35,731 nt of DNA from positions 1 to 35,731 of IMG/VR virus record IMGVR_UViG_2713896799_000024. One strand, written 5' to 3'. The position numbers and the translations under genes are program-made. Numbering within the stretch: the first letter of the stretch is position 1; the number at the start of each line of letters is the position of its first letter. The notes under the pieces are model-generated. The model saw nothing but the letters and a program-made list of their open reading frames with translations, was not told the origin of the DNA and ran no database searches. Shown here one piece after another: positions 1-34,868 of this stretch. The DNA is from a virus (taxonomy: Duplodnaviria; Heunggongvirae; Uroviricota; Caudoviricetes).

Positions 1-219
1 TTACATCCACATAATTTGCTGCCCTGATGGCAACGGGTGCGGCCTTACGGCGTGGACTTCTCCCGGCTTCACGATATATCGCTGTACCGACTCATAAGTG
101 ATGAACGTGGCGCTGCAATTCACGTTCTGGCACTGGTGATAACGCTCTTTTGTCGTGTCAGTGATATAGCGGCTTGTACGCGCATGTGCGGCATGCTGGC
201 ATAAAGGACAATGAAACAT
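1..219 (-). CDS. ogr: Late transcription activator Ogr (C4 zinc finger), 72 aa starting MFHCPLCQH
   Basis: Translation MFHCPLCQHAAHARTSRYITDTTKERYHQCQNVNCSATF... with CxxC...CxxxxC zinc-finger spacing; the listed 93-aa ORF has an N-terminal extension that I do not accept. Confidence 0.9.
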   Translation of the reverse strand: MFHCPLCQHAAHARTSRYITDTTKERYHQCQNVNCSATFITYESVQRYIVKPGEVHAVRPHPLPSGQQIMWM

Positions 220-7116: not shown

Positions 7117-8451
7117 ATGTTTAGCTTAATCATGGCCGGAGAACCGGACGTTTTTGACCGCTGGCCGTGTATGGACCCTGAGCTTAAAGAAGGCAAGGAA
7201 AGCTTCTCGATGTCCCGCATGCTGGAAGGCACCCCAAGCAATATTTACAGAAAATTAACACCAATAAGACCCGATACCTTAAGAGTACTCGCCAAGCTAC
7301 CGGTGTTGTTCATGACCGAAATTTATACAAAAGATGATGAATATGATACAAACAAGTACATCAGGATCAGGCTTGGGGAAATAAGAAATTTACGTAAAGA
7401 TGGTGGCGATATTTTATTTTCTTTCAAGATTAATCATGATTTTGGAGAAATAACAAATCCCCAAACGACATTATATAAAGAAACCCTAGGACTAGGATCT
7501 TTCGGGTTAAGTCGTACACATTGGGCAGTAAAAAATAAGGATTTGAATATTGTTCTGGAATTACTTGGTTTAAACAAAAAAAATAGCCATCTGAAAGGTA
7601 CAATCAAATTAAAAAAACAAACATACCCAGTAGTCGAGAATATTATAGATTATCTTAATTTCATTAAGAAAAACTTTCGTGATGGTCTCATTACCTTCTA
7701 TCGTGGACACTCTAAAAGCTCATATGAGCTTGTCCCCTCTCTTTACAGAAAAAATCAAAACGGGACGTACAGGCATCTTGCTTCAGAATCTGATTTAGTA
7801 CGTGAAATACTCAGCGCAAGACCAAATGAATTTAAGGAGGATAAATTTACGATTGATAAACTTGTCCGCATGCAGCATTATGGCTTGCCTACAAGACTCT
7901 TAGACATTACATCTAACCCACTGATAGCATTATATTTTGCTTGCTGTTCGAACCCCGATGAAAACGGACAGGTGATTTCGTTTTCAACAAACAGAAAGAA
8001 AATTAAATATTTCGACTCAGACACAGTGAGCTGTATAGCAAACTTATCACTTTTATCTTACGAAGAGTTGGAAAAATTGTCTTCCATTGATGCCAGAAAA
8101 GGTAGTATGGAGTTACCTGAACTCACTGATAAACTTGCAGACCTTATACAGAATGAAAAATCATATTTCAGAAACAGAATAATCCCTGATGACTTAAAGA
8201 AAGTTGTTTTCCTTAAGGCAAAAATAAATAATGAACGCATACAATCTCAGGCAGGAGCTTTTCTTCTGTTCGGACTTGATCCCATTTTACCGGAAACAGA
8301 TGCTGAGTTTCCTCTTAACAGAGTGGAGATAGCGAACAAAAATAAAATTCTGGAAGAGCTGGCACAGCTTAATATATCCGAAAGCACTGTATATCCCAGC
8401 ATGGAGAAAACGGCAGCAGAAATTACAAAAAAGTTTTTATCGGTATCATAA
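7117..8451 (+). CDS. Cargo gene at the P2 Z/fun position: FRG-domain protein (444 aa), function unknown, candidate anti-phage/abortive-infection protein
   Basis: AGGAG RBS 6 nt upstream of ATG; translation contains ITFYRGHSKSSYELVPSLYR and RMQHYGLPTRLLDITSNPLIALYFAC, matching the FRG-domain signature (FYRG motif, QHYGLPTRLLD block); visibly AT-rich and on the opposite strand to the flanking late genes. Confidence 0.75.
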   Translation: MFSLIMAGEPDVFDRWPCMDPELKEGKESFSMSRMLEGTPSNIYRKLTPIRPDTLRVLAKLPVLFMTEIYTKDDEYDTNKYIRIRLGEIRNLRKDGGDILFSFKINHDFGEITNPQTTLYKETLGLGSFGLSRTHWAVKNKDLNIVLELLGLNKKNSHLKGTIKLKKQTYPVVENIIDYLNFIKKNFRDGLITFYRGHSKSSYELVPSLYRKNQNGTYRHLASESDLVREILSARPNEFKEDKFTIDKLVRMQHYGLPTRLLDITSNPLIALYFACCSNPDENGQVISFSTNRKKIKYFDSDTVSCIANLSLLSYEELEKLSSIDARKGSMELPELTDKLADLIQNEKSYFRNRIIPDDLKKVVFLKAKINNERIQSQAGAFLLFGLDPILPETDAEFPLNRVEIANKNKILEELAQLNISESTVYPSMEKTAAEITKKFLSVS

Positions 8452-9212: not shown

Positions 9213-9827
9213 TTACACCTGTGCGACGTTATACCATGTGCCATTGATGTATTTTTGTATTGGCCTGAATACTGCGGGGTCATCACCATCGACTTCACCG
9301 ACAATACCAAGCCCGGTAATTACGTGCCCTGCTTTCTCATACATCACCCCTTTCTGCATGGTCTGGACAACACGTGTGCCAAGTCTGATATCTCTCACAT
9401 AGCGGGAATCAAAGTTACCGTAATCCGAGGGATTAACACGCCCCGTAATATTTATGGTCTTATTACTTTGAATGCTTCCGGAAACAAAGCGCATAACATG
9501 GACGTTATTAGCATAAACATCCAGATTACCATCGCCATTTTGTTTAAATCCGGTGTCGTTATCACCAAGAACAATAGAGTTCCCACCCAACGCGTTATTC
9601 GTGCCAAGTGCCAGCCCGCCATCAATCCTGGCACCATTACCAACAGACACAACTCCTGTTCTTAAGTTGATGCCGAATGGCCTTAATGGCCCAATATCTC
9701 CATTTTCACCCTCATTTTCTCGTGTAGGAATGATATACAGGTTTTCTTCAGAACGGCGAAAAATAGCCCCAAAAGATGAATTAAATATCCTCAGTGCATT
9801 GACTGTAGATATTTTGCGTATTTTCAT
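9213..9827 (-). pseudogene. H: Tail fibre H, 3' fragment separated from the 5' part by an IS21-family insertion
   Basis: 204-aa ORF with G/N-rich beta-strand-like tail-fibre C-terminal sequence; its apparent ATG lies within the IS terminal repeat region and has no RBS; lengths of the two fragments (487+204) approximate intact P2 H. Confidence 0.75.
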
Positions 9828-10007
9828 GAAAGGAGATCACTCAATAACTTCCATCGAGATCGGGTAATAACATTTGAACAGATCGCTGAATAACATCGAT
9901 GGAGATCACTTTTGACTCATTTTGTTATTCAGTGATCTCCATCAATGTTATTGGAACTTCACAGGTGTGTTGATCTGTATCTTTTGCCATTCCGGTAAAG
10001 GATACCT

Positions 10008-11549
10008 ATGCCAACAGTTCCAATTTCTATGAGAAAACTTAAAGAAATTCTTAGGCTTAAATACGGTGTTGGACTCAGCCATCGACAAATTGGTCGTAGT
10101 CTTGCAATCTCCCCTTCCGTTGTATCCAGATATGCTAATCGGGCGGCTCAACTTGGCATAAAGCAGTGGCCCTTACCTACAGGATGGGATGATACAAAAC
10201 TAAAACATGCGTTCCTTCAGACCCAGGTTAAGATGAAGAAGCACTCTCTGCCTGACTGGGCTACAGTACACCGGGAACTGCGTAATAAATGCGTGACGCT
10301 GCAGCTACTCTGGGAAGAATACTGTGAGCGTAATCCAGGCGGTTTTTACAGCTATAACCATTACTGCCGGATGTACCGTGAATGGCTCAAAACCACTTCA
10401 CCATCAATGCGTCAGGTACATAAAGCTGGCGAAAAACTTTTCGTTGATTACTGTGGACCTACCGTTGGCGTTACCGACCCTGAGACCGGAGAAATAAGAA
10501 CTGCTCAGGTCATCGTAGCTGTTCTCGGGGCATCAAGTTACACATGGGCAGAGGCCACCTGGTCTCAGCAGCTTGAAGACTGGGTGATGAGTCATGTTCG
10601 CTGCTTCCAGTGGTTGGGTGGCGTTCCTGAACTTGTTGTTCCGGACAATCTGAAAAGCGCCACATCCAGGGCATGTAAGTATGATCCTGACGTTAACCCT
10701 ACCTACCAGCAGATGCTTGAGCATTATAATGTCGCAGTTTTGCCTGCGCGGCCACGTAAACCGAAAGATAAAGCCAAAGCTGAAGTTGGCGTTCAGGTTG
10801 TTGAACGCTGGATCATGGCCCGAATCAGGCATGAGATCTTCTACAGCCTTGCATCGCTTAATCAGCGCATTCGGGAGTTGCTGGAAAGACTGAATAACAA
10901 AATAATGCAGAAGTTGGGTTATTCACGTGCAGAACTCTTCATCCAGCTTGATAAACCCGCACTGAAGCCTCTTCCTGAAGCCAGTTACAGTTACACCCTG
11001 GTGAAGAAAGTCAGAGTTCATGCCGATTACCACGTGGAAATCGACAAACATTACTACTCGGTTCCATGTTCGCTGTTAGGCCAGCAACTGGAAGCATGGA
11101 TCTCCGGAGAACTGGTAAGACTCTTCAATCAGGGGCAGGAGGTTGCTGTGCACCCGCGCAAGCGTACTTATGGCTACAGTACCCGCAACGAGCACATGCC
11201 TGAAGCTCATCGACAGCATGCCACCTGGACGCCAGAGCGTCTTCTGGAATGGGCGGGGCACATAGGCAGTGAAACTCATAGTTATGTGCTTCATATACTG
11301 AACTCTCGTCCACATCCGGAACAAAGCTATCGCTTCTGCCTTGGACTCCTGAACCTTCATAAAAAATACAGTAAAGCCAGACTTAATGCAGCATGTGCAA
11401 GAGCTCTGAAAACAAAGGTATGGCGTCTGTCAGGTATTAAATCGATCCTGGAAAAAGGTCTGGATAAACAACCTGTTCAGGATCCAAAACCAGATCTGTT
11501 ATCCACGATGGAACACGAAAACGTACGCGGCAGTGAGTATTACCACTGA
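10008..11549 (+). CDS. istA: IS21-family transposase IstA
   Basis: 513-aa ORF with N-terminal HTH region (LSHRQIGRSLAISPSVVSRY) and central DDE integrase-like region characteristic of IstA. Confidence 0.85.
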   Translation: MPTVPISMRKLKEILRLKYGVGLSHRQIGRSLAISPSVVSRYANRAAQLGIKQWPLPTGWDDTKLKHAFLQTQVKMKKHSLPDWATVHRELRNKCVTLQLLWEEYCERNPGGFYSYNHYCRMYREWLKTTSPSMRQVHKAGEKLFVDYCGPTVGVTDPETGEIRTAQVIVAVLGASSYTWAEATWSQQLEDWVMSHVRCFQWLGGVPELVVPDNLKSATSRACKYDPDVNPTYQQMLEHYNVAVLPARPRKPKDKAKAEVGVQVVERWIMARIRHEIFYSLASLNQRIRELLERLNNKIMQKLGYSRAELFIQLDKPALKPLPEASYSYTLVKKVRVHADYHVEIDKHYYSVPCSLLGQQLEAWISGELVRLFNQGQEVAVHPRKRTYGYSTRNEHMPEAHRQHATWTPERLLEWAGHIGSETHSYVLHILNSRPHPEQSYRFCLGLLNLHKKYSKARLNAACARALKTKVWRLSGIKSILEKGLDKQPVQDPKPDLLSTMEHENVRGSEYYH

Positions 11550-11560
11550 TACGGGATCCA

Positions 11561-12310
11561 ATGATGAATCATCTTTACGAACAACTGACCGCACTTAAAC
11601 TCACCGGCTTCCGTGATGCGCTTAAAAAGCAACTTGCTCAGCCGGGCACATACCAGGAGCTGGGCTTCGAAGAACGCCTGTCATTACTGACAGCAGAAGA
11701 ACTAACCTGCCGTGAAAACAGGAAGGCAGAGCGTCTGATCAAACATGCACGGTTCAGACTTAATGCTGAGTTATCAAAGCTGGATTATCGTAACAATAGA
11801 GGGCTGGACAGGGCCCTCATCCGTTCACTCAGTCAGGGAAACTGGTTAACCCTGAAACAAAATATTTTACTGACCGGGGCCACCGGCAGCGGTAAAACGT
11901 TCCTGGCATGTGCACTTGGTCATAATGCCTGCCGACAGGGATACAAGGTCTACTATTATCGCCTTAAAGCGCTGATGGAACAGTGCTATCAGGGGCATGC
12001 TGATGGAAGATACAGCAAACTTTTGACCAGGCTGAATAATAGCGATCTGCTGCTTCTGGATGACTGGGGGCTGGAACCTCTCTCATCAGAACAGCGTAGC
12101 GACCTGCTGGAAATAGTGGATCTGATGTACCAACGAGGCTCAATCATCGTAGTGAGCCAGTTGCCGGTGGAAAACTGGTACAAAATGATCGGAGACTCCA
12201 CACATGCGGATGCCATCCTAGATCGACTGGTTCATGGCAGTATCAAGATCGAACTTAAAGGAGAATCAATGCGGAAAATACAATCTCCGTTGACCGAAGG
12301 AGATCAGTGA
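11561..12310 (+). CDS. istB: IS21-family helper ATPase IstB
   Basis: 249-aa ORF with Walker A LLTGATGSGKTFLA and Walker B LLLLDDWG; immediately downstream of istA. Confidence 0.88.
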   Translation: MMNHLYEQLTALKLTGFRDALKKQLAQPGTYQELGFEERLSLLTAEELTCRENRKAERLIKHARFRLNAELSKLDYRNNRGLDRALIRSLSQGNWLTLKQNILLTGATGSGKTFLACALGHNACRQGYKVYYYRLKALMEQCYQGHADGRYSKLLTRLNNSDLLLLDDWGLEPLSSEQRSDLLEIVDLMYQRGSIIVVSQLPVENWYKMIGDSTHADAILDRLVHGSIKIELKGESMRKIQSPLTEGDQ

Positions 12311-12380
12311 AGGTAATTTAAAAACGGTTCTGTGAAAGTGACACGAACCGATCTCCATCGATGTTACTCACCGATCTCCT

Positions 12381-13844
12381 TCACGGTAATACGCATATTT
12401 TTACTTCACTGCTGAAAAGGGCTTTAACAAGAACATACAGAGCATCCCATTTAAGATTCATCAGGTCTTTTGTTGTGGTGCTCTGGCGACTTCTCCATTT
12501 GAAATATTCATTGCCGTTGTCACCTGTTTCAAACCACATATATGAATCAGTATCGCTGTCGGCATCATTTTTAAATCCAATCTTTGCCCAGTCAGTATTT
12601 CGAATCCAGGCAAGGATTGAGTCGTTTTCAAAAGTAAGCCCACCGGACAAGGTATCGCCATTCTTTTGCACCGCGTTCCTGGCCCTGTTTACCGTTTCCT
12701 GCAAACCGAGGTATTCGATAACGGCAGTAACGGTCGCTTTGGCAAGAATATCCCGTCCGACTTTTGTCAGGGTTGCCAGGCTGGCAACATCATTCCCCGT
12801 AAAATACGGAAACCTGTCTGCCGCAGTAGCAAGCCCCGCCAGCGCCGTCAGGGTAGCATCTTTCGGTTGCTTACCCGCAAGCGCATTAGTCATGGTGGTA
12901 GCAAAATTCGGGTCATTGCCCAGCGCCGCCGCCAGCTCGTTCAGCGTATTCAGTGCGTCAGGCGACGAGTCTACAAGGGCGGCAATCGCGGCCATAACGA
13001 AAGCCGTGTTTGCGATCTGAGTATTATTCGTTCCCTGTCGCGCAGTTGGCGTCGTTGGCGTTCCGGTCAGTGCAGGGCTGTTTAATGGCGCTTTTTTGTT
13101 CGTTTCATCCATTACCGTCTTAACGGCTTTTGGTGTTGCGGCGAGCGTTTCAGACGTGCTGTTGGTGGCACTACTGAGCTGGACAAGGCCTTTTCGCGCT
13201 GTGGTGGCGTCCTGTGCGGTATATTTCCCGTTAGCCAGGTCATACGCGGCCTTTACCGCTTTCGGCGTTGCGGCCAGTGTTTCAGACGTGCTGTTGGTCG
13301 CACTGCTTAACTGAGTAAAACCTTTTGCGGTCAGCGAGGCGTCCGGGTGACGTCGTGACTGTTCGTGCTCTGCAATTTTGTCATCAACGTAATCTTGCGT
13401 CGCCATCACCGTTGTGGTGTCAATGGTCAGCTCCACTGAGGCCACACTGCTGACGATGATGACCATGCGGCAGGTCTGCGAACGCCCTGAGCCTTCGGCA
13501 AGGGCAGGTTTATAACTTTCGGCCATGTTCGCCACGGCAATTAACGTTCCCGCATCATCGTACAGGCCAAGCTCCCGCATCCAGAAACCGCCCACCTCCG
13601 GCGGAATAATCAGCTCTGCGATAATATAATTACTGTTTCGTTTGTCCTGGCTGATTTTATTCAGCGCATGTCGCCAGACTTCATGGATAAGCCCGGTCTG
13701 TCCGGCATCCGGGACAGGCAATTTACCACCGCCATCCCCGACGGCCATCGTGGTAATGTTGACCTTTCGCCCTCCCGGCGCGGTTGCCGCTGCCAGCTTT
13801 GCTGCACCGGCAGTGGTGATAACGGTTTTGAATTTTGTGCTCAT
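12381..13844 (-). pseudogene. H: Tail fibre H, 5' fragment; reading frame runs into the IS21-family element and terminates
   Basis: 487-aa ORF starting MSTKFKTVITTAGAAKLAAA (P2 gpH N-terminus); last residues (KICVLP-stop) are encoded by the IS terminal repeat. Confidence 0.85.
13119..13330 (-). repeat. Tandem duplication inside H (two ~80-bp homologous units, period 132 bp), encoding repeated QLSSATNSTSETLAATPKAVK
   Basis: Near-identical nucleotide blocks at ~13119-13198 and ~13251-13330; the repeat is visible in the protein and in the antisense ORF 13096-13314. Confidence 0.8.
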
Positions 13845-13854
13845 TATTCCTCAC

Positions 13855-14385
13855 TTATCCGGGGTAAACCGTAATTACATCGCCGTCATAAGCCACACCA
13901 CCGGCGAACAGATAGCCGGGAATATCCCGGGTAATGTTCAGGCCAATAAGGTGGCGGCTTGCAGGTTTGGCATCGGCAATCAGCCGTTCCATTTCCTGAT
14001 ACATTGCCTCTGTGATGCCGCTTTCCAGTACACCAATATCAAGCCGGAAGGTGCCGGGCGGGTCACTGTTTTCCCACCACTCTGTCACGTTGATGAGATA
14101 GCCGAGCGGCTCCACCACACGCCGGATTGCACCTATTGTGCCTTTATGACAGTGGATGAAATACGCATCGCGGATAATGGCGCGTTTTGTCGCTTCCGGC
14201 CACTTTTCATCCCACCTGTCGACCGAAAACGCCCACGCCAGCCACGGCAGCAGATTTGCCGGACAGGTGTCTGGGTTCCACAGCTCACGAATACTGACCG
14301 GCGTTTTTTCAATTTCCGCACAGGCTTTTGCGGCGGCGACCTCAAGCGGTGATGAGCCGGTCGGCAGCAGTCGCGAATCACTCAT
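13855..14385 (-). CDS. I: Baseplate/tail protein I
   Basis: 176-aa ORF, overlaps J stop, position between J and H. Confidence 0.88.
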   Translation of the reverse strand: MSDSRLLPTGSSPLEVAAAKACAEIEKTPVSIRELWNPDTCPANLLPWLAWAFSVDRWDEKWPEATKRAIIRDAYFIHCHKGTIGAIRRVVEPLGYLINVTEWWENSDPPGTFRLDIGVLESGITEAMYQEMERLIADAKPASRHLIGLNITRDIPGYLFAGGVAYDGDVITVYPG

Positions 14386-15286
14386 CCGAGCCTCCGGTCA
14401 CGACGCGGTATTCGGTACAGAAAGACGCCTGCGTACTGTTGAGCACGATGTCGGCCAGTGGTGCAGCCAGTTCGACACGCTGCACACCTTCCACATGCAA
14501 AGCGGCATAAATGGCAGACAGACGGATGTCACGCCCCAGCCGGTGCTGTGCCGTGATATACGCTTCCAGTTTTTTCACGGCGGCAGCGCGAATGGGTTCG
14601 CTTTCGGGACCAGGGTAAAGATACAGCGTGGCGTTTATCTGGTATTCAACGATGGCGGCAGACTGCACGGTCACGCGGTCGGCCACCGGCCTGACGTCCT
14701 CGCCATTAAGGGCGTTACGCACCACGGCCAGCAGGTCTTCGGATGCGACACCGTTATTTTCACGTGACAGCACAGAGATGGTGACGCAGGCCGGAGACGG
14801 ACTGGTGACAGAGATATCCGCGACACGCCCGTCGGCACTGCGACCATGATACTGATAGGCACCCACCGACCCGGCGACGCTTAAGCCCTCAAACGCCTGC
14901 TGAATACGCAGACGATAATCGGTGTCAGACTCCATCACTGCCGGTGTCGGCGGAATGGTCGAATCATCTGCCGGGGTGATAGTCAGGCGCGTGGTGTTGT
15001 AATTGGCACCAATCACATCAAGGTCATTACCGGCTGCACAGGCCAGCATCACCGCCCGTGCAGCCTCATTCACACGCTGACGCCAGATAAGCTCACGATA
15101 AGCATTTTCCTCCAGCAGTTTGACGAGAGGCTCAGATTCCAGTGTCAGGGTACGGGCGACCGCCTCCTGCTGGTCTTCCGGGTAAAGGGAAATCAGTGTC
15201 GCCTTGCGTTCGGCAAGAATGGTTTCAAAGTCCAGCTCCTCGACCACATCCGGTGCGGGTAGCTGGTTCAGGTCGATAATCGGCAT
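14378..15286 (-). CDS. J: Baseplate assembly protein J
   Basis: 302-aa ORF, baseplate J family, P2 order W-J-I. Confidence 0.9.
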   Translation of the reverse strand: MPIIDLNQLPAPDVVEELDFETILAERKATLISLYPEDQQEAVARTLTLESEPLVKLLEENAYRELIWRQRVNEAARAVMLACAAGNDLDVIGANYNTTRLTITPADDSTIPPTPAVMESDTDYRLRIQQAFEGLSVAGSVGAYQYHGRSADGRVADISVTSPSPACVTISVLSRENNGVASEDLLAVVRNALNGEDVRPVADRVTVQSAAIVEYQINATLYLYPGPESEPIRAAAVKKLEAYITAQHRLGRDIRLSAIYAALHVEGVQRVELAAPLADIVLNSTQASFCTEYRVVTGGSDE

Positions 15287-15290
15287 GGTT

Positions 15291-15638
15291 TCAACTCACA
15301 GGGATGGTTAACGAAAGTGGCTGGCCGGTGTCGTTGTGCTGGCCGGTTAACGTGACCGTCATTCGCCCGTCAAAGCTGCGCGCCGTGGTGACGGATGACA
15401 GGGTGACGCGGGGTTCCCATTTCAGCACCGCCATGTAACAGGCGACCTTAATCTGCAACTCAAGCGCCGGGGTCTGCGGCTGGTCAATCATTGATGCCAG
15501 CAACGAGCCGTAATCACGACGCATCACCCGTGAGCCGACCGGTGTACGCAGGATATCGCCGATACTCTGGCTGATATGCTCAAGGTCAGTGACAGTCAGG
15601 CCATCACTGCGATTCATTCCGAGATAACGCGCTGTCAT
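15291..15638 (-). CDS. W: Baseplate protein W (gp25-like)
   Basis: 115-aa ORF between V and J. Confidence 0.88.
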   Translation of the reverse strand: MTARYLGMNRSDGLTVTDLEHISQSIGDILRTPVGSRVMRRDYGSLLASMIDQPQTPALELQIKVACYMAVLKWEPRVTLSSVTTARSFDGRMTVTLTGQHNDTGQPLSLTIPVS

Positions 15639-16270
15639 AAAGGACTCCCGGTTGTGCCACCGCTGTCGCCGGGGTGTTTATGGGTATGCAGTACCTTACC
15701 GTTTGATGAGAGTTCACCGCCGGTATGTTCAATGTTGCCGCGCATCGTCCCGCCCTTCTGCACTTCCAGCGTGCCGATAATCAGCCTGTTGGTGCAGACC
15801 ACCTCCGGGGTGTCCAGGGTGACGCGGGTTGATGCTTTCACCATGACCACCGGCACCGTGGCAGTAACAGAATCAGAGGCCGTCACGCTGGCCGTTTTAA
15901 TTCCGCTTACCGTAAGTGCACTGGTTTCGGGTTCATATTCAATCACCGCCCCGTCAGGGAAACGGATATGCAGGGCATCCGCCGACGCAGACGGCGCGGG
16001 GTTATCGCCGGAATAAATCCCCGGCAGAACGAACGCCGTGTCGAGTTCACCGCCCACGGCCAGAATCAGCACCTGTTCCCCCACGGAAGGTGCCCACCAT
16101 GTGCGCGAACGCCCGGCGCGATGGGTCAGCCACTGAAGCCAGTCGGTGCACATGCCGCCGGTCTGCACACGGCAGCGACCGGCGTTAAGGTCGGTTTCGA
16201 CGACAAGGCCGGTACGAATCATGTTGCGCAGTGCGCGCGCGAGTTCCTGAATATTTGCGAGAGTGTTCAT
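15635..16270 (-). CDS. V: Baseplate spike/assembly protein V
   Basis: Translation from MNTLANIQELARALRNMIRTGLVVETD... (211 aa); the upstream in-frame extension to 16315 is rejected because it abuts the late-promoter dyad. No clear SD before either candidate start. Confidence 0.85.
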   Translation of the reverse strand: MNTLANIQELARALRNMIRTGLVVETDLNAGRCRVQTGGMCTDWLQWLTHRAGRSRTWWAPSVGEQVLILAVGGELDTAFVLPGIYSGDNPAPSASADALHIRFPDGAVIEYEPETSALTVSGIKTASVTASDSVTATVPVVMVKASTRVTLDTPEVVCTNRLIIGTLEVQKGGTMRGNIEHTGGELSSNGKVLHTHKHPGDSGGTTGSPL

Positions 16271-16317
16271 AACGGGAAGGATGCCGCCAAGAAAGCAGCA
16301 CGGCAAACCTCCCATTA

Positions 16318-16335
16318 TGTACTATAGCTGACACA
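16318..16335 (-). promoter_or_regulatory. Candidate Ogr-dependent late promoter dyad (P_V), TGT-N12-ACA
   Basis: tgtactatagctgacacaACAG: perfect TGT-N12-ACA with the ACAACAG core shared with 6675 and 24279; located between the S-V cargo gene and V. Confidence 0.6.
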
Positions 16336-16352
16336 ACAGCATATTTTGTGTG

Positions 16353-17879
16353 TTATTCCTCATTCTCTTTTCCATTTAAGAGCATTCTTTTTTCACATAT
16401 TTTTTCAACAAGCAAGTTTGCAAATGTATCTAGCTGTGCGTATATATCCTCACTAGGATTTATGGTAAAACCTCCAATGCCATTGGCAGTATCAAACATG
16501 CCAACAGGTGCATCACTATATCTTAAAGGAATAACACACCCATCACCAAATCTATCCCTAAATGTATCACCTTCAAATTTGCACCATATTCTAGTTGGAT
16601 AATCCCTACTCAAAAACGGAATTACAAAAACAGACTCACTCCTATAAATTGGAGCAAGATATTGTTCTACATCTTCAGAAAGTATTCTGGCCTGCTCATT
16701 GAAATCATAAAAAACAGATAACTCATTCTCAATCAGCTTTTGATTTAAATATTCCGCATGATTTCTATTAGCTCCAGCAAATGATAAAGCAAAGTCATAT
16801 TTCGACTTAAACTCAAATGATGTGAACCCTATCTTCTCCGCAAGCTTGCTCCATAACAAATTCTTTATATAATAATAAAACTTGGGATCTTCGATTGAAA
16901 TCTCCGTAGTTTCATCATTATAATGAATAACATCCGAAAAATCAGGATTGCTCTCATAATGCGTTTTTAAATGGCCTCGCGTCAGAATTTGCCCAACGCT
17001 ATTACGATGATTAGGATTGTTAATTAAATAACTTGTCAAATTTAAAGAACGCTCATCTTCTTTAGATAACCAATATAAAACGTGGAGATATGGAGCTCTA
17101 CTACCCTTTTTAACCCGCTGGCCTTTCACAAAGCGAACGACTATATCATTGAATCTATAGCTAAGATCCTGAATCACTGTTTCTTTAAGTGATTCATAGC
17201 TAATATTTGTTTCCCGAGGAGATTCTAACTCTTCTGTGATATCAGCCTGTAAACAAGCATTATAAGCCAACATTTGCGCCAGATGAAATGCCCCATCCGA
17301 GTCCTTTACAATATCTTCTTTTACATTTAGTTTGAAATTAAGCGCATTCTCACCTTTTTCTAGCAACTCCCTGACCTTATATTCCGGATTGGACTCAAAT
17401 TTAACAATGGAGATTCGATTTAGTAAATCCGGTGATAAATCAATCAGTGATTTGCCTGTTTTATTTATACCTATAATAATCAACTTAGAATCTAAGGGTT
17501 GTTCATCCGCTAAATTTTTCAGCAAGTCAGATATTTTATGCTTCAACTCATCATCTAACTTATGAAAATCATCAATAATCACCCCACCGAAACCACTCGT
17601 TGTTATTATATTTTCAATCTGGGCTTTATCTTCCTTTTTCCTTCCAGACAATACTTTAAACTCTTTAATTATCCGACTACTGGTCTCGAATTTTAACTTT
17701 TCAATAACCTGTCTTACGCAAGTCGTCTTCCCTATACCTGATGGCCCTTCAATAATTACCCCTCTTCCCGCTGTTCTTATCGACACATAGAGGTGTTTAT
17801 ACTCGTTAGGTTCAACAAAAGTAATTGTCGGGATACCCGAAAGTTTAAAGACATCTTCTAAATACACTGGTTCGCGCAT
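16353..17879 (-). CDS. Cargo gene between S and V: P-loop NTPase (N-terminal) fused to TIR domain (C-terminal), 508 aa; candidate single-gene anti-phage defence protein
   Basis: Walker A GPSGIGKTT, Walker B GGVIIDDFHKLD; C-terminal YDFALSFAGANRNHAEYL...SVFYD...SVFVIPFLSRDYPTRIWCKFEG matches the TIR fold signature, including the WC..E glutamate that is catalytic in TIR NADases. AAGGGA RBS before ATG; visibly AT-rich. Confidence 0.8.
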   Translation of the reverse strand: MREPVYLEDVFKLSGIPTITFVEPNEYKHLYVSIRTAGRGVIIEGPSGIGKTTCVRQVIEKLKFETSSRIIKEFKVLSGRKKEDKAQIENIITTSGFGGVIIDDFHKLDDELKHKISDLLKNLADEQPLDSKLIIIGINKTGKSLIDLSPDLLNRISIVKFESNPEYKVRELLEKGENALNFKLNVKEDIVKDSDGAFHLAQMLAYNACLQADITEELESPRETNISYESLKETVIQDLSYRFNDIVVRFVKGQRVKKGSRAPYLHVLYWLSKEDERSLNLTSYLINNPNHRNSVGQILTRGHLKTHYESNPDFSDVIHYNDETTEISIEDPKFYYYIKNLLWSKLAEKIGFTSFEFKSKYDFALSFAGANRNHAEYLNQKLIENELSVFYDFNEQARILSEDVEQYLAPIYRSESVFVIPFLSRDYPTRIWCKFEGDTFRDRFGDGCVIPLRYSDAPVGMFDTANGIGGFTINPSEDIYAQLDTFANLLVEKICEKRMLLNGKENEE

Positions 17880-17909
17880 ATATTCCCTTTAAGATTAGTG
17901 TAAAAAGAT

Positions 17910-17945
17910 GATCTATAATATTTTTTTTCGCTATTTTCAAGTCAA
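17910..17945 (-). promoter_or_regulatory. Candidate sigma70-like promoter for the ATPase-TIR gene
   Basis: Minus strand reads TTGACT (plus 17940-17945), 16-19 bp spacer, AATATT/TATTAT (plus ~17915-17923), about 35 bp upstream of the ATG; AT-rich context. Confidence 0.4.
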
Positions 17946-17994
17946 CAAGCGATTGCCCCCCTAATGATTTCACCAATGATGATTAACTATGTTT

Positions 17995-18444
17995 TTATTC
18001 TAGATGGTTAGAGATAATCCCTTCAATCATCTGCACATCCTCACCGGTAAAGCCGAGCAGAGGACGCGCCGGATAATCAATTTTCTTACCGTCTTTCCGG
18101 TTTTCTTCCGACAGACCGAACTGATGCACACTGGCGATTTTCGGTGACTTTCCGCCGTAAAACTCCATTGATGCCTGTTCCGGGCTGGCGCGGATATGCA
18201 AAAAACGACTGGTGATAAGTTTCGCAAACATTTTTCGTTTAACGCGACCGGTCTTTTTTCTGGCGCTCTGCTGCTGGCGTGGTGCGTAGGGTGTGCCGTC
18301 CGGGGCTTTCTGTGCCATCACCCGACGCTGCTGACTCTGACGCAGACGTTTCGCCAGTTCGGCACTCAGTCGCCGACGCCCTGACGGTGACAGCGACTCA
18401 ATCAGTCCGGTCAGCCGGTCTTCAAAACGCTTAAACTCATTCAT
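17995..18444 (-). CDS. S: Tail completion protein S
   Basis: 149-aa ORF MNEFKRFEDRLTGLIESL..., overlaps R stop. Confidence 0.88.
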   Translation of the reverse strand: MNEFKRFEDRLTGLIESLSPSGRRRLSAELAKRLRQSQQRRVMAQKAPDGTPYAPRQQQSARKKTGRVKRKMFAKLITSRFLHIRASPEQASMEFYGGKSPKIASVHQFGLSEENRKDGKKIDYPARPLLGFTGEDVQMIEGIISNHLE

Positions 18445-26138: not shown

Positions 26139-27172
26139 TGAGCAAGAAAAAAGGGAAAACACCGCAACCTGCGGCAAAAAAAATGACCGCCAGCGCCCCG
26201 AAAATGGAGGCATTCACCTTTGGTGAGCCGGTGCCGGTACTCGACCGCCGTGACATTCTGGATTACGTCGAGTGCATCAGTAACGGCAGATGGTATGAGC
26301 CACCGGTCAGCTTTACCGGTCTGGCAAAAAGCCTGCGTGCTGCCGTGCATCACAGCTCACCGATTTACGTCAAACGTAATATTCTGGCCTCGACATTTAT
26401 CCCGCATCCGTGGCTTTCCCAGCAGGATTTCAGCCGCTTTGTGCTGGATTTTCTGGTGTTCGGTAATGCGTTTCTGGAAAAGCGTTACAGCACCACCGGT
26501 AAGGTCATCAGACTGGAAACCTCACCGGCAAAATATACCCGCCGTGGCGTGGAAGAGGATGTTTACTGGTGGGTGCCGTCCTTCCATGAGCCGACACCTT
26601 TCGCGCCCGGCTCCGTGTTTCACCTGCTGGAGCCGGATATTAATCAGGAGCTGTACGGCCTGCCGGAATATCTCAGCGCCCTTAACTCTGCCTGGCTGAA
26701 TGAGTCGGCCACGCTGTTCCGCCGCAAGTATTACGAAAACGGCGCACATGCCGGATACATCATGTACGTCACCGATGCCGTGCAGGATCGCAACGATATC
26801 GAAATGCTCCGCGAAAACATGGTGAAGTCGAAAGGCCGCAACAACTTTAAAAATCTGTTTCTCTATGCCCCGCAGGGGAAAGCCGACGGCATTAAAATTA
26901 TCCCGCTCAGTGAAGTGGCGACGAAGGACGATTTTTTTAATATCAAAAAAGCCAGCGCCGCTGACCTGCTGGACGCACACCGCATCCCCTTTCAGTTGAT
27001 GGGCGGCAAGCCGGAGAACGTCGGGTCACTGGGAGATATTGAGAAAGTGGCAAAGGTCTTTGTCCGCAATGAGCTTATCCCGTTACAGGACAGGATCCGC
27101 GAGATAAACGGCTGGCTCGGTCAGGAGGTCATCCGCTTTAAAAACTACTCACTGGCCACTGACAACGGCTGA
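26138..27172 (+). CDS. Q: Portal protein Q
   Basis: 344-aa ORF, ATGA overlap with the P stop. Confidence 0.92.
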   Translation: MSKKKGKTPQPAAKKMTASAPKMEAFTFGEPVPVLDRRDILDYVECISNGRWYEPPVSFTGLAKSLRAAVHHSSPIYVKRNILASTFIPHPWLSQQDFSRFVLDFLVFGNAFLEKRYSTTGKVIRLETSPAKYTRRGVEEDVYWWVPSFHEPTPFAPGSVFHLLEPDINQELYGLPEYLSALNSAWLNESATLFRRKYYENGAHAGYIMYVTDAVQDRNDIEMLRENMVKSKGRNNFKNLFLYAPQGKADGIKIIPLSEVATKDDFFNIKKASAADLLDAHRIPFQLMGGKPENVGSLGDIEKVAKVFVRNELIPLQDRIREINGWLGQEVIRFKNYSLATDNG

Positions 27173-27177
27173 ACATC

Positions 27178-27199
27178 GCCGCCTGCGGGCGGCTTTTTT
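27178..27199 (+). terminator. Rho-independent terminator after Q
   Basis: gccgcc-tgcg-ggcggc hairpin followed by TTTTTT, 6 bp after the Q stop codon. Confidence 0.8.
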
Positions 27200-27341
27200 A
27201 CAACCCGCCATCACGCCCTCACACGCTCACCACCGCACAAAACAGCCCGCATACACACCAACGCCCCGGCGAACAATCTAAACGCCATCACGACGCGCTC
27301 AGACGCTGAAAAAATAAAATCAGCACCACCGCCAGCGCGCA

Positions 27342-27360
27342 GTGCTTTCCCCGCCTCGCC
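27342..27360. other. cos: P2-type cos site (19-nt cohesive end, reverse complement of GGCGAGGCGGGGAAAGCAC)
   Basis: Exact 19-mer gtgctttccccgcctcgcc present between Q and the A-side region, where P2 cos lies in prophage orientation; the cos sequence is recalled from memory. Confidence 0.7.
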
Positions 27361-27575
27361 TGCCCGCTTTATGGGTCGGTTTTAATGCAGGTGCACGAAT
27401 ACACCGGAGGCGCGCCGGCACTGGTGGCGCTCAGACGCAACAGGGGAGGAAAACGCATGCAATTGAATGCATTTCTAGGCACACCTAAAAATGAAAAAAT
27501 GTTATGACAATTAATCATTTTAAACACACTGATTAAGGGTAGAATTCTCCTAGTAAAATCATAGAAAAACCGCTA

Positions 27576-28505
27576 TCAAACCAGGCTTTTGCCTTGCTTC
27601 ATTTTTTTAGATGAGTCTAAAAATTTGAAATTACCATTAGATGAAAATATTCTTTCTGCGGTATGCCGAATGACTGAAGTATTGAAGACCGCAGCCTGCT
27701 CCTCATTACAACTGAATACACCCTCATGACCATCAAACTCGCCCGCCAAAAGAAGGTTTTTTGATACTGGGAACAAAACTAAAGTGTCTTTTACACCAAA
27801 CCCGGGGGAATAAGGGCCTCGTGCTAATTCAGGATTAGTCCACATTAAGCAAACTGGGTTATCTGAAGTTATAAATGACCCTTGCCCATCAGATATGGTC
27901 ATAAGTGACCAGTTGCGTTGATGCAACAACTTGGTGATAACAGGTACACATTTCATTTCCATATCTATCATGAACTCTCTGATTACATTGATTTCGAAAT
28001 TATCCCCATCCACAAAATTTTTAATTTTTTCGTAAGCGAGATCATATGGCAAAGACTCACCCATTTCTTTCTCATAAGCTAATTTGCAATCGTCCCAACG
28101 CTCAGCCGAACTAACTGAGGATTTCATGATAAACTTTGCTATTTGTTTCAATGGAGATGATAAATGTTCTCGCTGAGCAGGCGTACGTATTGCCAATAAG
28201 GAAATAAACTCCAGAATAACATCTTTGGTTTCGCCTGAAAACTCGCCCCCCTCCTCAAGTTTTCTTAAATGAGTAGCGACACTGCCTTCAAACTCTGCAA
28301 GAGAACTCTCGAGATAGTTTGGGTCAACTCCATCCAATTCTAATCGGTTGAAATCTCTAACCCCCCCGACATTGCGAGTATTACTCTCAAAGGTTTTGCG
28401 CTCCTTTAAATCTATTACAGTTAATTTTGATTTTTTCCCCCCATTACTTGTAAACCCTTTCAAATAACATTGGGATAAAAAATGATGATGCCTTGCAACA
28501 CTCAT
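27576..28505 (-). CDS. Cargo gene at the P2 tin/old position: DUF4238-like protein (309 aa), candidate single-gene anti-phage protein
   Basis: Translation from MSVARHHHFLSQCYLKGFTSNGG... (HH-x-P/S-Q-x-YL-x-GF N-terminal signature of DUF4238); GGAG SD 7 nt upstream; visibly AT-rich; downstream of A on the same strand, where P2 carries tin/old. Confidence 0.7.
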   Translation of the reverse strand: MSVARHHHFLSQCYLKGFTSNGGKKSKLTVIDLKERKTFESNTRNVGGVRDFNRLELDGVDPNYLESSLAEFEGSVATHLRKLEEGGEFSGETKDVILEFISLLAIRTPAQREHLSSPLKQIAKFIMKSSVSSAERWDDCKLAYEKEMGESLPYDLAYEKIKNFVDGDNFEINVIREFMIDMEMKCVPVITKLLHQRNWSLMTISDGQGSFITSDNPVCLMWTNPELARGPYSPGFGVKDTLVLFPVSKNLLLAGEFDGHEGVFSCNEEQAAVFNTSVIRHTAERIFSSNGNFKFLDSSKKMKQGKSLV

Positions 28506-28608
28506 ACTCAGCTCCGTTATGGCTATAATCGCATAAATAATAAGCACTTATATTGCAATCATCTAGTTAAATACACAATATTTATGACTCCGAAATTTCA
28601 TTAAATCA

Positions 28609-30822
28609 CTATTGATAGGTTTTACCAATTAGTGCCAGCTCGAAATGGATGCGTGGAATCTGCGAACGTTCAGCCTTTGTCATCCGCCCTGATGGCGCTA
28701 TCTGGTACGGTTTTAATGGTTCGCAGTTTCTTTGTTGCCAATTCGGTCTCGGTGCACCATGTTTTAATGCACTCCTGAGCACCGTCACAACTTCCGGGTC
28801 ATCCCATCCGATAACACCACTATCAACCAGATTTAACACCGCTGCGGCATGCTCAGACGGTGTAGGGTGCATAACCGGAACGTCACCGCCGGTGAACTTT
28901 CCACAGTTATTGACAGGACTCCGAGGCGCTGCGATGCCGCTTTTTAAAGTCAAAGGCTCAACGACCGGAACTTTCGGCACAATGCGCCAGTTCGTCGTTC
29001 TGGTGATATGAATATGACGCGCGCCGAGATGCGGCGCGTAAATGCCGACCACTCTCTCGACCTCTTCCTCGTACTCGTTAACATCATCCGACGGGCTACG
29101 GGCAACCCTGACAGTCTGACAATCGCGCGGGACATTTGCCCCACCCTGCGCGCTGATATACAACGCAAAATCACCACTGTCTGCGGCAGCGCGAGCAGCC
29201 TCGACGCGTTCGTCAAACTCATCAGCAATACTGACGCCGCGAGGCAATTTGCGTAGTTCACGGTAAGCCCCCATTGTCGGCAGTCCAACCGTTTTAAATT
29301 GCGGGATGCGCCACGTTGACGCCCATGCGGTAACAGCCGCGGCAGTATCTTTAAGCGGCTTACCGGTATCGTTATCGAGCTGACCATCCAGTGCATAGCC
29401 GTCGATATTTTTTGAAATGTATTTCGCGATATATCCCGCAGCACCGCCCCGATTAAGGTGTTTTGCCTGAAAACGGTTTCGCGCGGCTCCTCTTTCGTCG
29501 CCATCCTCTTTGAGCGCATAGCGACGCATGATTTCGATAATCTGGTTACGCTGGCGCGGATTACAAAAAAGCATCATATGCCAGTGCGGCGTTCCGTCGT
29601 GGTGTGGCTCGACGACACGCAAACCGTAGACCTGTAAATCATTATCCTTGAATGCCGTGCGCATCAGGCTCCAGATACGGCAGAGATAACGCTGCGCATC
29701 CTTTGGATTGAATGCCTCATCATTCCAGCCGTGATTAAGCTGGACGGTTTTACTTTCGCCTTTTCCGACCTGACGTGTCGGGTGATACTTTGACGGCGCG
29801 GTCAGCGTGATAAACATCCCCACATCACCCTCTGCGGCGGCGTAACGCTCAATACCGGCAATGGTGTTCATCAGCTCCATCCGGCGAATTTCAGGATTAG
29901 AAATACTGCCCATCACCTTACTGATAAGGTCGATGCGCTCGCCGGTTTCCCTGTTTTCAAGGTCACACGATTTAAGAAATTCCAGATTTGCCTGGCGGCG
30001 CGCACGCACATCACGAATGGCGTGTTTACTGGCATAAGGAGAACGGTCTTTATTGACCTCCCCGACAGCTATCAGTAACGCTTCATGCCAGCGCATACGC
30101 TGGCCTTTAAGCTGATGAGTCCACCACTCATCGTTAAACAGACGGGCAATGGCAGAATATGCCTGCCTCGTGGTCATCAGCCCTTTACGGTATTTTTTCC
30201 AGTAGAGAGGGGAAATATTGAAAGCACGTGCAGCGCCAGCAACATGACCATAGAGGTGAGCCTGCGCCTCATCCGTAAACAGCGATTCTTTTTCGCCATG
30301 CGCATCCACCCAGGCATCGCTGAGTTCCTCATACATCATGAAAAGCTGCGATGAGATACGGGCAGCAAACTTTTTCAGCTCCTTGTCATTCATTCCCGGC
30401 AGGCGCGCATAGTGGTCACGCTCTGCCAGAAACAGTAACGACGCGTCGGTGTTCATTTCATGGCGCTGATTCACACGCTCAATGCGCGGCCATAAACGAC
30501 GCTGAAAAGTGGATGTGAGGAAATAAAACCCGTGCACCGGGCTTTTATTGCGCCGGATGTAGTCATAGCGTGAAGTAAACAGCGAGCGCAAAAAGTAAGG
30601 CAGGCGGTTAATCGTGGATAAAACACCTTGCACCTGACGCATCTCGTCACGTGTAAGGGGTCTTTCGCGCCCGACGGCCTCGCGTGGCGCGTTCCATGCA
30701 TAAGCACCGGTAAACGCCTTACCGGTGCCTGCAGCAAATGCTGACGGAGGGACAAAACGCCCGGAGGCTTTAACGGCCATATGAGCCAAAAGCCTCTGAA
30801 CAACGCCTGCTGAGTTGCTCAA
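28609..30822 (-). CDS. A: Replication initiation protein A (rolling-circle HUH endonuclease); start codon uncertain (30822 or 30780)
   Basis: 737-aa ORF containing HUH-like motif PHWHMMLF and a YxxK-type region; P2 gpA-like throughout. Confidence 0.88.
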   Translation of the reverse strand: MSNSAGVVQRLLAHMAVKASGRFVPPSAFAAGTGKAFTGAYAWNAPREAVGRERPLTRDEMRQVQGVLSTINRLPYFLRSLFTSRYDYIRRNKSPVHGFYFLTSTFQRRLWPRIERVNQRHEMNTDASLLFLAERDHYARLPGMNDKELKKFAARISSQLFMMYEELSDAWVDAHGEKESLFTDEAQAHLYGHVAGAARAFNISPLYWKKYRKGLMTTRQAYSAIARLFNDEWWTHQLKGQRMRWHEALLIAVGEVNKDRSPYASKHAIRDVRARRQANLEFLKSCDLENRETGERIDLISKVMGSISNPEIRRMELMNTIAGIERYAAAEGDVGMFITLTAPSKYHPTRQVGKGESKTVQLNHGWNDEAFNPKDAQRYLCRIWSLMRTAFKDNDLQVYGLRVVEPHHDGTPHWHMMLFCNPRQRNQIIEIMRRYALKEDGDERGAARNRFQAKHLNRGGAAGYIAKYISKNIDGYALDGQLDNDTGKPLKDTAAAVTAWASTWRIPQFKTVGLPTMGAYRELRKLPRGVSIADEFDERVEAARAAADSGDFALYISAQGGANVPRDCQTVRVARSPSDDVNEYEEEVERVVGIYAPHLGARHIHITRTTNWRIVPKVPVVEPLTLKSGIAAPRSPVNNCGKFTGGDVPVMHPTPSEHAAAVLNLVDSGVIGWDDPEVVTVLRSALKHGAPRPNWQQRNCEPLKPYQIAPSGRMTKAERSQIPRIHFELALIGKTYQ

Positions 30823-33537: not shown

Positions 33538-33628
33538 TAGACTGGCCCCCTGAATCTCCAGACAACCAGTATCACTTAAATAAGTGATAGTCTTAATACT
33601 AGTTTTTAGACTAGTCATTGGAGAACAG

Positions 33629-33994
33629 ATGATTGATGTCTTAGGGCCGGAGAAACGCAGACGGCGTACCACACAGGAAAAGATCGCAATTGTTCAGCAG
33701 AGCTTTGAACCGGGGATGACGGTCTCCCTCGTTGCCCGGCAACATGGTGTAGCAGCCAGCCAGTTATTTCTCTGGCGTAAGCAATACCAGGAAGGAAGTC
33801 TTACTGCTGTCGCCGCCGGAGAACAGGTTGTTCCTGCCTCTGAACTTGCTGCCGCCATGAAGCAGATTAAAGAACTCCAGCGCCTGCTCGGCAAGAAAAC
33901 GATGGAAAATGAACTCCTCAAAGAAGCCGTTGAATATGGACGGGCAAAAAAGTGGATAGCGCACGCGCCCTTATTGCCCGGGGATGGGGAGTAA
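33629..33994 (+). CDS. insC: IS2 transposase OrfA (InsC)
   Basis: Translation [41 protein letters not shown]... (121 aa). Confidence 0.92.
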
Positions 33995-34857
33995 GCTTAG
34001 TCAGCCGTTGTCTCCGGGTGTCGCGTGCGCAGTTGCACGTCATTCTCAGACGAACCGATGACTGGATGGATGGCCGCCGCAGTCGTCACACTGATGATAC
34101 GGATGTGCTTCTCCGTATACACCATGTTATCGGAGAGCTGCCCACGTATGGTTATCGTCGGGTATGGGCGCTGCTTCGCAGACAGGCAGAACTTGATGGT
34201 ATGCCTGCGATCAATGCCAAACGTGTTTACCGGATCATGCGCCAGAATGCGCTGTTGCTTGAGCGAAAACCTGCTGTACCGCCATCGAAACGGGCACATA
34301 CAGGCAGAGTGGCCGTGAAAGAAAGCAATCAGCGATGGTGCTCTGACGGGTTCGAGTTCTGCTGTGATAACGGAGAGAGACTGCGTGTCACGTTCGCGCT
34401 GGACTGCTGTGATCGTGAGGCACTGCACTGGGCGGTCACTACCGGCGGCTTCAACAGTGAAACAGTACAGGACGTCATGCTGGGAGCGGTGGAACGCCGC
34501 TTCGGCAACGATCTTCCGTCGTCTCCAGTGGAGTGGCTGACGGATAATGGTTCATGCTACCGGGCTAATGAAACACGCCAGTTCGCCCGGATGTTGGGAC
34601 TTGAACCGAAGAACACGGCGGTGCGGAGTCCGGAGAGTAACGGAATAGCAGAGAGCTTCGTGAAAACGATAAAGCGTGACTACATCAGTATCATGCCCAA
34701 ACCAGACGGGTTAACGGCAGCAAAGAACCTTGCAGAGGCGTTCGAGCATTATAACGAATGGCATCCGCATAGTGCGCTGGGTTATCGCTCGCCACGGGAA
34801 TATCTGCGGCAGCGGGCTTGTAATGGGTTAAGTGATAACAGATGTCTGGAAATATAG
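33952..34857 (+). CDS. insD: IS2 transposase OrfB (InsD), expressed as an OrfAB fusion by -1 frameshift at AAAAAAG (33946-33952)
   Basis: 301-aa DDE-transposase ORF overlapping insC; slippery heptamer A6G sits at the overlap. Confidence 0.9.
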
Positions 34858-34868
34858 GGGCAAATCCA

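Follow-up and report, generated by a model that had tools for sequence, protein, structure and literature searches.

A P2-type cohesive-end sequence between Q and a DUF4238 gene orients an insertion-disrupted P2-like prophage

Introduction

Where would the linear genome of this P2-like prophage begin and end, and on which side of its packaging site does its DUF4238 gene lie? The window, by which we mean the whole 35,731-base stretch of DNA analysed here, carries the standard P2 map in reverse-complement orientation and runs from the ogr stop codon (base 1) to the int stop codon (35731). Its gene order is the prophage order, permuted at att. The cos-proximal region of such elements, between gpA and gpQ, is a defence hotspot for which 1,650 gene arrangements have been described in 18,150 E. 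coli loci (Rousset et al. 2022, PMC9122126), and a single DUF4238 protein from the gpA-gpQ locus was reported to give strong resistance to T7 (PMC9122126). The cos sequence, the cos position, the gpA-gpQ hotspot and the DUF4238 system are thus already known from published work. Here, we show that a 19-mer between Q and the DUF4238 gene of the window is identical to the P2 cohesive end, and we conclude with strong confidence that it is the cos of a P2-like (Peduovirus) prophage and that the DUF4238 gene is cos-proximal gpA-gpQ cargo.

Results

A single exact copy of the P2 cohesive-end sequence lies between Q and the DUF4238 gene

The 19 bases at 27342..27360 read GTGCTTTCCCCGCCTCGCC on the (+) strand. 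Their reverse complement, GGCGAGGCGGGGAAAGCAC, is present on the (-) strand as a single exact copy (0 mismatches) in the window, where no second site with three or fewer mismatches was found. The initial annotation, which had described the 19-mer as complementary to the P2 cohesive end, had set alignment with the published P2 cos region beforehand as the test of that claim, and the proposed and published sequences proved to be the same: GGCGAGGCGGGGAAAGCAC corresponds exactly to positions 1..19 of the P2 record NC_001895, annotated as "cosL; left cohesive end", and to positions 33575..33593, annotated as "cosR". The records of fiAA91-ss, in which cosL is also annotated, and of P24A7b start at the base equivalent to window base 27360. 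In addition, the 19-mer fits the pattern GGCG(A/T)GGCGGGGAAAGCA(C/T) of the P2, 186 and P4 cos sites, with identities of 19/19 to P2, 19/19 to P4 and 17/19 to 186, the two differing bases of the latter giving GGCGTGGCGGGGAAAGCAT.

The location of the 19-mer also agrees with that in P2. It was said to lie 170 bp downstream of Q, and indeed its start is 170 bases past the last base of Q, with 169 nt between the two (the equivalent distance in P2 is 167 nt). The order in the window is Q, tQ, cos, DUF4238 and A, and the P2 cos likewise lies behind tQ, between the portal gene and the replication and cargo end of the genome. The P-Q operon terminator tQ of the window aligns with the annotated P2 tQ at 160..181. 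The coordinates of these and the other features discussed below are collected in Table 1.

Table 1. Features of the prophage in the window, with their coordinates and the basis of each assignment
Feature	Position	Strand	Basis or context
444-aa FRG-domain protein	7117..8451	+	PADLOC candidate PDC-S15, 1.6e-98
ISEc12 (PGAP name), IS21-family	9816..12394		In tail-fibre gene H; 7-bp duplication ATATTTT
istA of ISEc12	10008..11549		
istB of ISEc12	11561..12310		
508-aa AAA+TIR protein	16353..17879	-	N-terminal AAA ATPase, C-terminal TIR_2
M, terminase small subunit, 247 aa	21459..22202	-	P2 M identity
P, terminase large subunit, 590 aa	24366..26138	+	Terminase_6N, Terminase_6C, Terminase_5
Q, portal protein, 344 aa, left-most gene of predicted linear genome	26138..27172	+	Phage_portal 1e-13
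tQ, rho-independent terminator of P-Q operon, between Q and cos	27178..27199	+	Hairpin GCCGCCTGCGGGCGGC and T run
55-bp cos core common to P2, 186 and P4	27335..27389	-	Alignment identity
19-nt cohesive-end sequence, predicted site of staggered terminase nicks	27342..27360	-	Exact unique match, identical to P2 cosL/cosR
TGCA -29	27386..27389		Inside 55-bp core
Extended right-end cos flank	27390..27475	-	TGCA motifs at fixed offsets
TGCA -35	27392..27395		Right-end flank
TGCA -101	27458..27461		Right-end flank
TGCA -111	27468..27471		Right-end flank
DUF4238 gene, predicted anti-phage, 309 aa, right-most gene of predicted linear genome	27576..28505	-	PF14022, PADLOC
AT-rich A/DUF4238 spacer, 103 nt, 29% GC	28506..28608	-	Composition
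A, replication initiator and nickase, 723 aa from ATG	28609..30780	-	Phage_GPA 3.3e-123
IS2, 1331 bp	33538..34868		In int, 137 nt into CDS (compared with pro147); 5-bp duplication ACTAC

Gene order and terminase identity set the orientation and predicted ends of the genome

In P2, Q and P adjoin cosL, while A, orf91, tin and old adjoin cosR (NC_001895). In the window, the coordinates of Q are lower than those of the 19-mer, and the coordinates of DUF4238 and A are higher. This gene order relative to cosL and cosR bears out the earlier assignment of DUF4238 and A to the right-end side of the genome, in the segment that holds tin and old in P2. The phage 186 record describes staggered cuts, of the top strand at the 5′ terminus of the 19-mer and of the bottom strand at the 3′ terminus. 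For the window, the (-) strand is predicted to be nicked 5′ of base 27360 and the (+) strand 5′ of base 27342; these nicks would produce 5′ overhangs and place Q at the left end of the genome and DUF4238 at the right end.

The proteins expected to act at this site are those of P2 in nearly every residue. P, with its length counted from the ATG that matches the P2 start, is identical to P2 P at 588/590 positions (99.7%), and M is identical to P2 M at 245/247 (99.2%), the P2 and pro147 records both annotating the latter as the terminase small subunit. Because the P and M of the prophage itself are near-identical to those of P2, the same cos specificity is expected. The portal protein Q is identical to P2 Q at 338/344 positions (98.3%). 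A is 93.6% identical to P2 A over 723 aa, the P2 protein being 761 aa long.

The right-most gene is a close homologue of a tested single-gene anti-T7 system

The DUF4238 gene shares the transcription direction of A, which is towards cos. The listed open reading frame (27576..28547) begins at a GTG. We took the CDS to be the shorter one in Table 1 because the PADLOC profile aligns only from residue 15, an ATG at 28505 follows a GGAG 8 nt upstream, and the corresponding pro483 product is 309 aa. The protein matches Pfam PF14022 at 8.4e-39 (134.1 bits, with the cut-off at 27; profile positions 2-279 of 281) and the PADLOC profile DUF4238-Pers at 2.7e-219 (724.7 bits, profile positions 1-309 of 309). 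The DUF4238 clone tested previously, pFR101, comes from E. coli TA007 (PMC9122126, Table S2A), and its protein is 92% identical and 98% similar to that of the window over all 309 aa. The two systems share the locus, the single-gene content and a similar start context; they differ in that the DUF4238 alleles are distinct and the A-proximal spacers are partly different. Thus, the window DUF4238 protein is a close homologue of a single-gene anti-T7 system; expression of this allele and, by homology, its activity against phage are predicted.

The GC content is 39% for the DUF4238 CDS, 29% for the cargo flanks and 51% for the window. The spacer between A and DUF4238 is the presumed site of the cargo gene's own promoter, and the fragment that was cloned "under native promoter" in earlier work included a related upstream region (PMC9122126). 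A scan for consensus sigma-70 promoters found no site in the 103-nt spacer, and the total for the region was not above that of shuffled sequence. No PDB sequence match to the DUF4238 protein was obtained, and our literature search found no molecular function for it. An AlphaFold model from a 65-sequence alignment (pLDDT 91.6, pTM 0.88) predicts, with confidence, a mixed alpha/beta fold with a central helical segment; the single-sequence model was unusable (pLDDT 41). Residues H7, H8, D32, R50, D51 and E183 are invariant in the family.

A variable cargo segment (27476..28608) lies between cos and A, which places the locus in the gpA-gpQ hotspot. Homology with most P2-like phages ends at about 27395..27423, and that with pro147 ends at 27090; because pro147 homology is regained only at 28679, a position ~70 nt into A from its 3′ terminus, the variable module is taken to extend into A on that side. 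In the pro147 record (13241..18003), the segment over which homology to the window is lost, from inside the 3′ end of Q to inside the 3′ end of A, holds a retron Ec48-type module and a second reverse transcriptase, and no cos-like region of that record aligned.

The content and orientation of the locus differ from those of P2. There, the gpA-gpQ locus holds orf91, tin and old, and old/tin starts ~150 bp from cosR and is transcribed towards A, whereas the window carries DUF4238 in the opposite orientation and orf91 is absent from it. A close counterpart is pro483 (NC_028943), which has the same Q-cos-DUF4238-A order and orientation, 98.2% identity over window positions 27101..27600 and the same CDS lengths for DUF4238 (309 aa) and A (723 aa), but is without the IS insertions of the window prophage. 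The pro483 19-mer, GGCGAGGCGGGGATAGCAC, carries one substitution relative to the canonical P2 form present in the window, which means that this lineage does not always keep the 19-mer unchanged; either natural variation or an error in sequencing could account for the substitution. Among 5426 complete E. coli genomes, 14 have the same layout, with up to 99.3% identity, when matches are required to cover at least 80% of window positions 27100..28700. The 12 of these 14 matches that were listed are annotated with a phage portal protein, a DUF4238 domain-containing protein and a replication endonuclease. IS-free relatives of the prophage with the Q-cos-DUF4238-A segment occur, for example, in E. 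coli Res13-Lact-ER01-35 and GPEC1209. A further 1670 complete E. coli genomes match only part of the 27100..28700 query. At the locus of phage vB_EcoM-12474III, no 19-mer was found within 4 mismatches.

Two insertion sequences disrupt the prophage that carries cos

Comparison with pro147 reveals two insertion sequences in the window. ISEc12 interrupts the tail-fibre gene H, leaving its N-terminal portion at 12381..13844 and its C-terminal portion at 9213..9827. GTEN_24, 23CRST046 and 23AR1183 are among the 3-5 complete E. coli genomes that share this insertion in H. IS2 splits int, such that the 299-aa "int" open reading frame takes its GTG start from inside the IS2 end; the same configuration was not found in the complete E. 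coli genomes searched. With the 207 bp that separate the ogr and int stop codons in P2, the excised genome would be ~35.9 kb with both IS elements (107% of P2) and ~32.0 kb without them. The present copy can probably neither excise nor form infectious particles alone. What was called the virion genome is therefore probably that of an ancestral or complemented element and is notional for the present, IS-broken copy.

These disruptions raise the possibility that the site is a true P2-type cos by descent that is now unused, in a cryptic prophage retained for its defence cargo. We regard this reading as evenly balanced between true and false. It is favoured by the breaks in H and int and by the presence of three low-GC cargo genes with defence-type domains. 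However, the cos core, its flanks, the terminase, the portal and the other late genes that were checked are intact; these late genes are of P2-like length, with 98-99.7% identity to P2 among the ones that were aligned. In addition, because the target duplications of both elements are intact, the insertions look recent, and the site would become usable again if a co-resident P2-like phage provided Int and H in trans. P4 DNA is packaged preferentially from closed circles (PMC2231350). If this preference holds for P2 too, cos would be unused unless excision were supplied in trans. The question of disuse concerns only the current use of the site, not its identity, and the assignment of the 19-mer as a P2-type cos is the same under either answer. 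The combination of an intact cos, terminase and defence cargo in a prophage freshly disabled by two IS elements is mildly new.

Two further cargo genes accompany DUF4238. A 1.72-kb insert (16289..18009) sits between the baseplate gene V and the tail-completion genes, at the P2 orf30 position, and encodes the AAA+TIR protein. The TIR_2 match of this protein, at 27.6 bits, is just under the Pfam cut-off of 28, its match to PADLOC PDC-S59 is weak, and tblastn returned no match to it in 50,697 phage records. Of 1560 E. coli genomes that share the flanks, only 2 also contain the insert between them; it is rare, probably defensive cargo at a third variable site. The FRG-domain gene sits between the tail sheath gene FI and the tail-fibre assembly gene G, at what we take to be the P2 Z/fun position. 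Hypothetical proteins of Escherichia phage Tritos and of Peduovirus P22H1 match its product with 97.7% and 44% identity, respectively.

The cos flanks are mosaic and contain TGCA motifs at fixed offsets

To compare the surroundings of the 19-mer, the cos region, oriented as in P2, was aligned with the circularised genome ends of P2, 186, P4 and fiAA91-ss. The 19-mer is embedded in the 55-bp conserved cos sequence of Ziermann & Calendar 1990, as cited in passages of PMC9594776 and PMC2231350. P2 has this block in common with P4, a satellite to which it is otherwise unrelated. The core is made up of the 7 bp TGCGCGC nearest Q, the 19-mer itself and a 29-bp right-end part (TGCATTAAAACCGACCCATAAAGCGGGCA), and the window core is identical to that of P2 at 51/55 positions, to that of 186 at 52/55 and to that of P4 at 50/55. 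All four differences from P2 are within the 29-bp part, where the window has the bases of 186.

Beyond the core, the two sides of the site have different affinities. The Q-side (left) flank, which includes the tQ terminator, is P2-type, with 54/60 identity to P2 and 60/60 to fiAA91-ss, while those of 186 and P4 show no relationship to the window past the 7 bp (20/60 and 25/60, respectively). In contrast, the right-end flank (-130..-30) is 186/P4-like, with identities of 61/101 to 186, 53/101 to P4 and only 32/101 to P2, and the string GCATGCGTTTTCCT is common to the window and the P4 right-end flank. Of the elements compared, 186 and P4 are thus the closest to the window in this flank, although the 19-mer and the left flank are P2-like.

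The affinity of the right-end flank, together with the string shared with P4, could be read as the sign that the site is the cos of a P4-like satellite, or of a hybrid, inserted beside the prophage. We consider this very unlikely. The left flank is P2-type, and P4 has only the 7 bp in common with it beyond the 19-mer; the neighbours of the site are P2 Q and P2 A; and the P4 genes psu, sid, delta, alpha and gop are absent among the open reading frames examined. The mosaic flanks are better explained by recombination at the common 55-bp core of a P2-like prophage than by an origin from P4.

The alignment was extended with six further elements (Yersinia GCS667 and YpM50, Klebsiella ST147-VIM1phi7.1, Salmonella STYP1, E. 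coli phage 899 and pro483), giving 11 elements of P2, 186, P4, Klebsiella, Yersinia and Salmonella type. In most of these 11 elements the right-end flank contains TGCA motifs whose offsets, counted from the first base of the 19-mer, are the same, while the sequence between the motifs is divergent. The -111 and -101 motifs are at the same offsets in 10/11 elements. The exception is fiAA91-ss, in which a 1-bp indel displaces the TGCA motifs and the -111 motif is absent. The -35 motif is absent from P2 and phage 899, and the -29 motif from STYP1. The window carries all four, the 186 and P4 sites have all four at the same offsets, and the presence of the -35 motif distinguishes the window from P2. 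Their conservation suggests that the TGCA motifs are putative terminase recognition elements. The mosaic cos flanks and the fixed-offset TGCA motifs are, like the state of the prophage, mildly new.

Finally, a chance or non-cos occurrence of the 19-mer, for example as part of a GC-rich repeat or a terminator, is so improbable that it can be set aside: the core is GC-rich (62%) and weak hairpins were flagged beside the 19-mer, but the expectation for an exact match on either strand of the window is 2.6e-7 (analytic), 100 dinucleotide-preserving shuffles of the window gave 0 matches within 3 mismatches, P2 synteny is present on both sides, the ssDNA fold of 27320..27480 is no better than that of shuffled sequence (z = +1.0), and an Rfam search of the whole window gave no match at the gathering threshold. 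The fold and Rfam results likewise give no sign of a structured element around cos. A hairpin beside the 19-mer was considered separately; it has a perfect 6-bp stem in P2, P4 and fiAA91-ss and two mismatches in the window and in 186, and because these mismatches come without compensatory change it is not a conserved structure.

Discussion

Collectively, these data point to a P2-type cos region of ~140 bp, made up of the 55-bp core and the right-end TGCA elements. In an excised circle, this region would be recognised by the element's own gpM and gpP, which would introduce two nicks 19 bp apart and generate a linear genome with 19-nt 5′ cohesive ends. Such a genome would start at 27360, proceed through Q, P and the late genes down to ogr, pass over attP, which is outside the window, into int, C, cox, B and A, and end at 27342. 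Its right end would comprise A, then the DUF4238 gene and last ~215 bp of sequence flanking cos. Cleavage at cos and binding of terminase to the TGCA elements are predicted here from sequence comparison with P2, 186, P4 and their relatives.

The assignment of the cos and its adjacent cargo adds no new biology to what is published on these elements. It does fix the orientation and the ends of the phage genome in the window, which aids annotation and the reading of the other cargo that the prophage carries.
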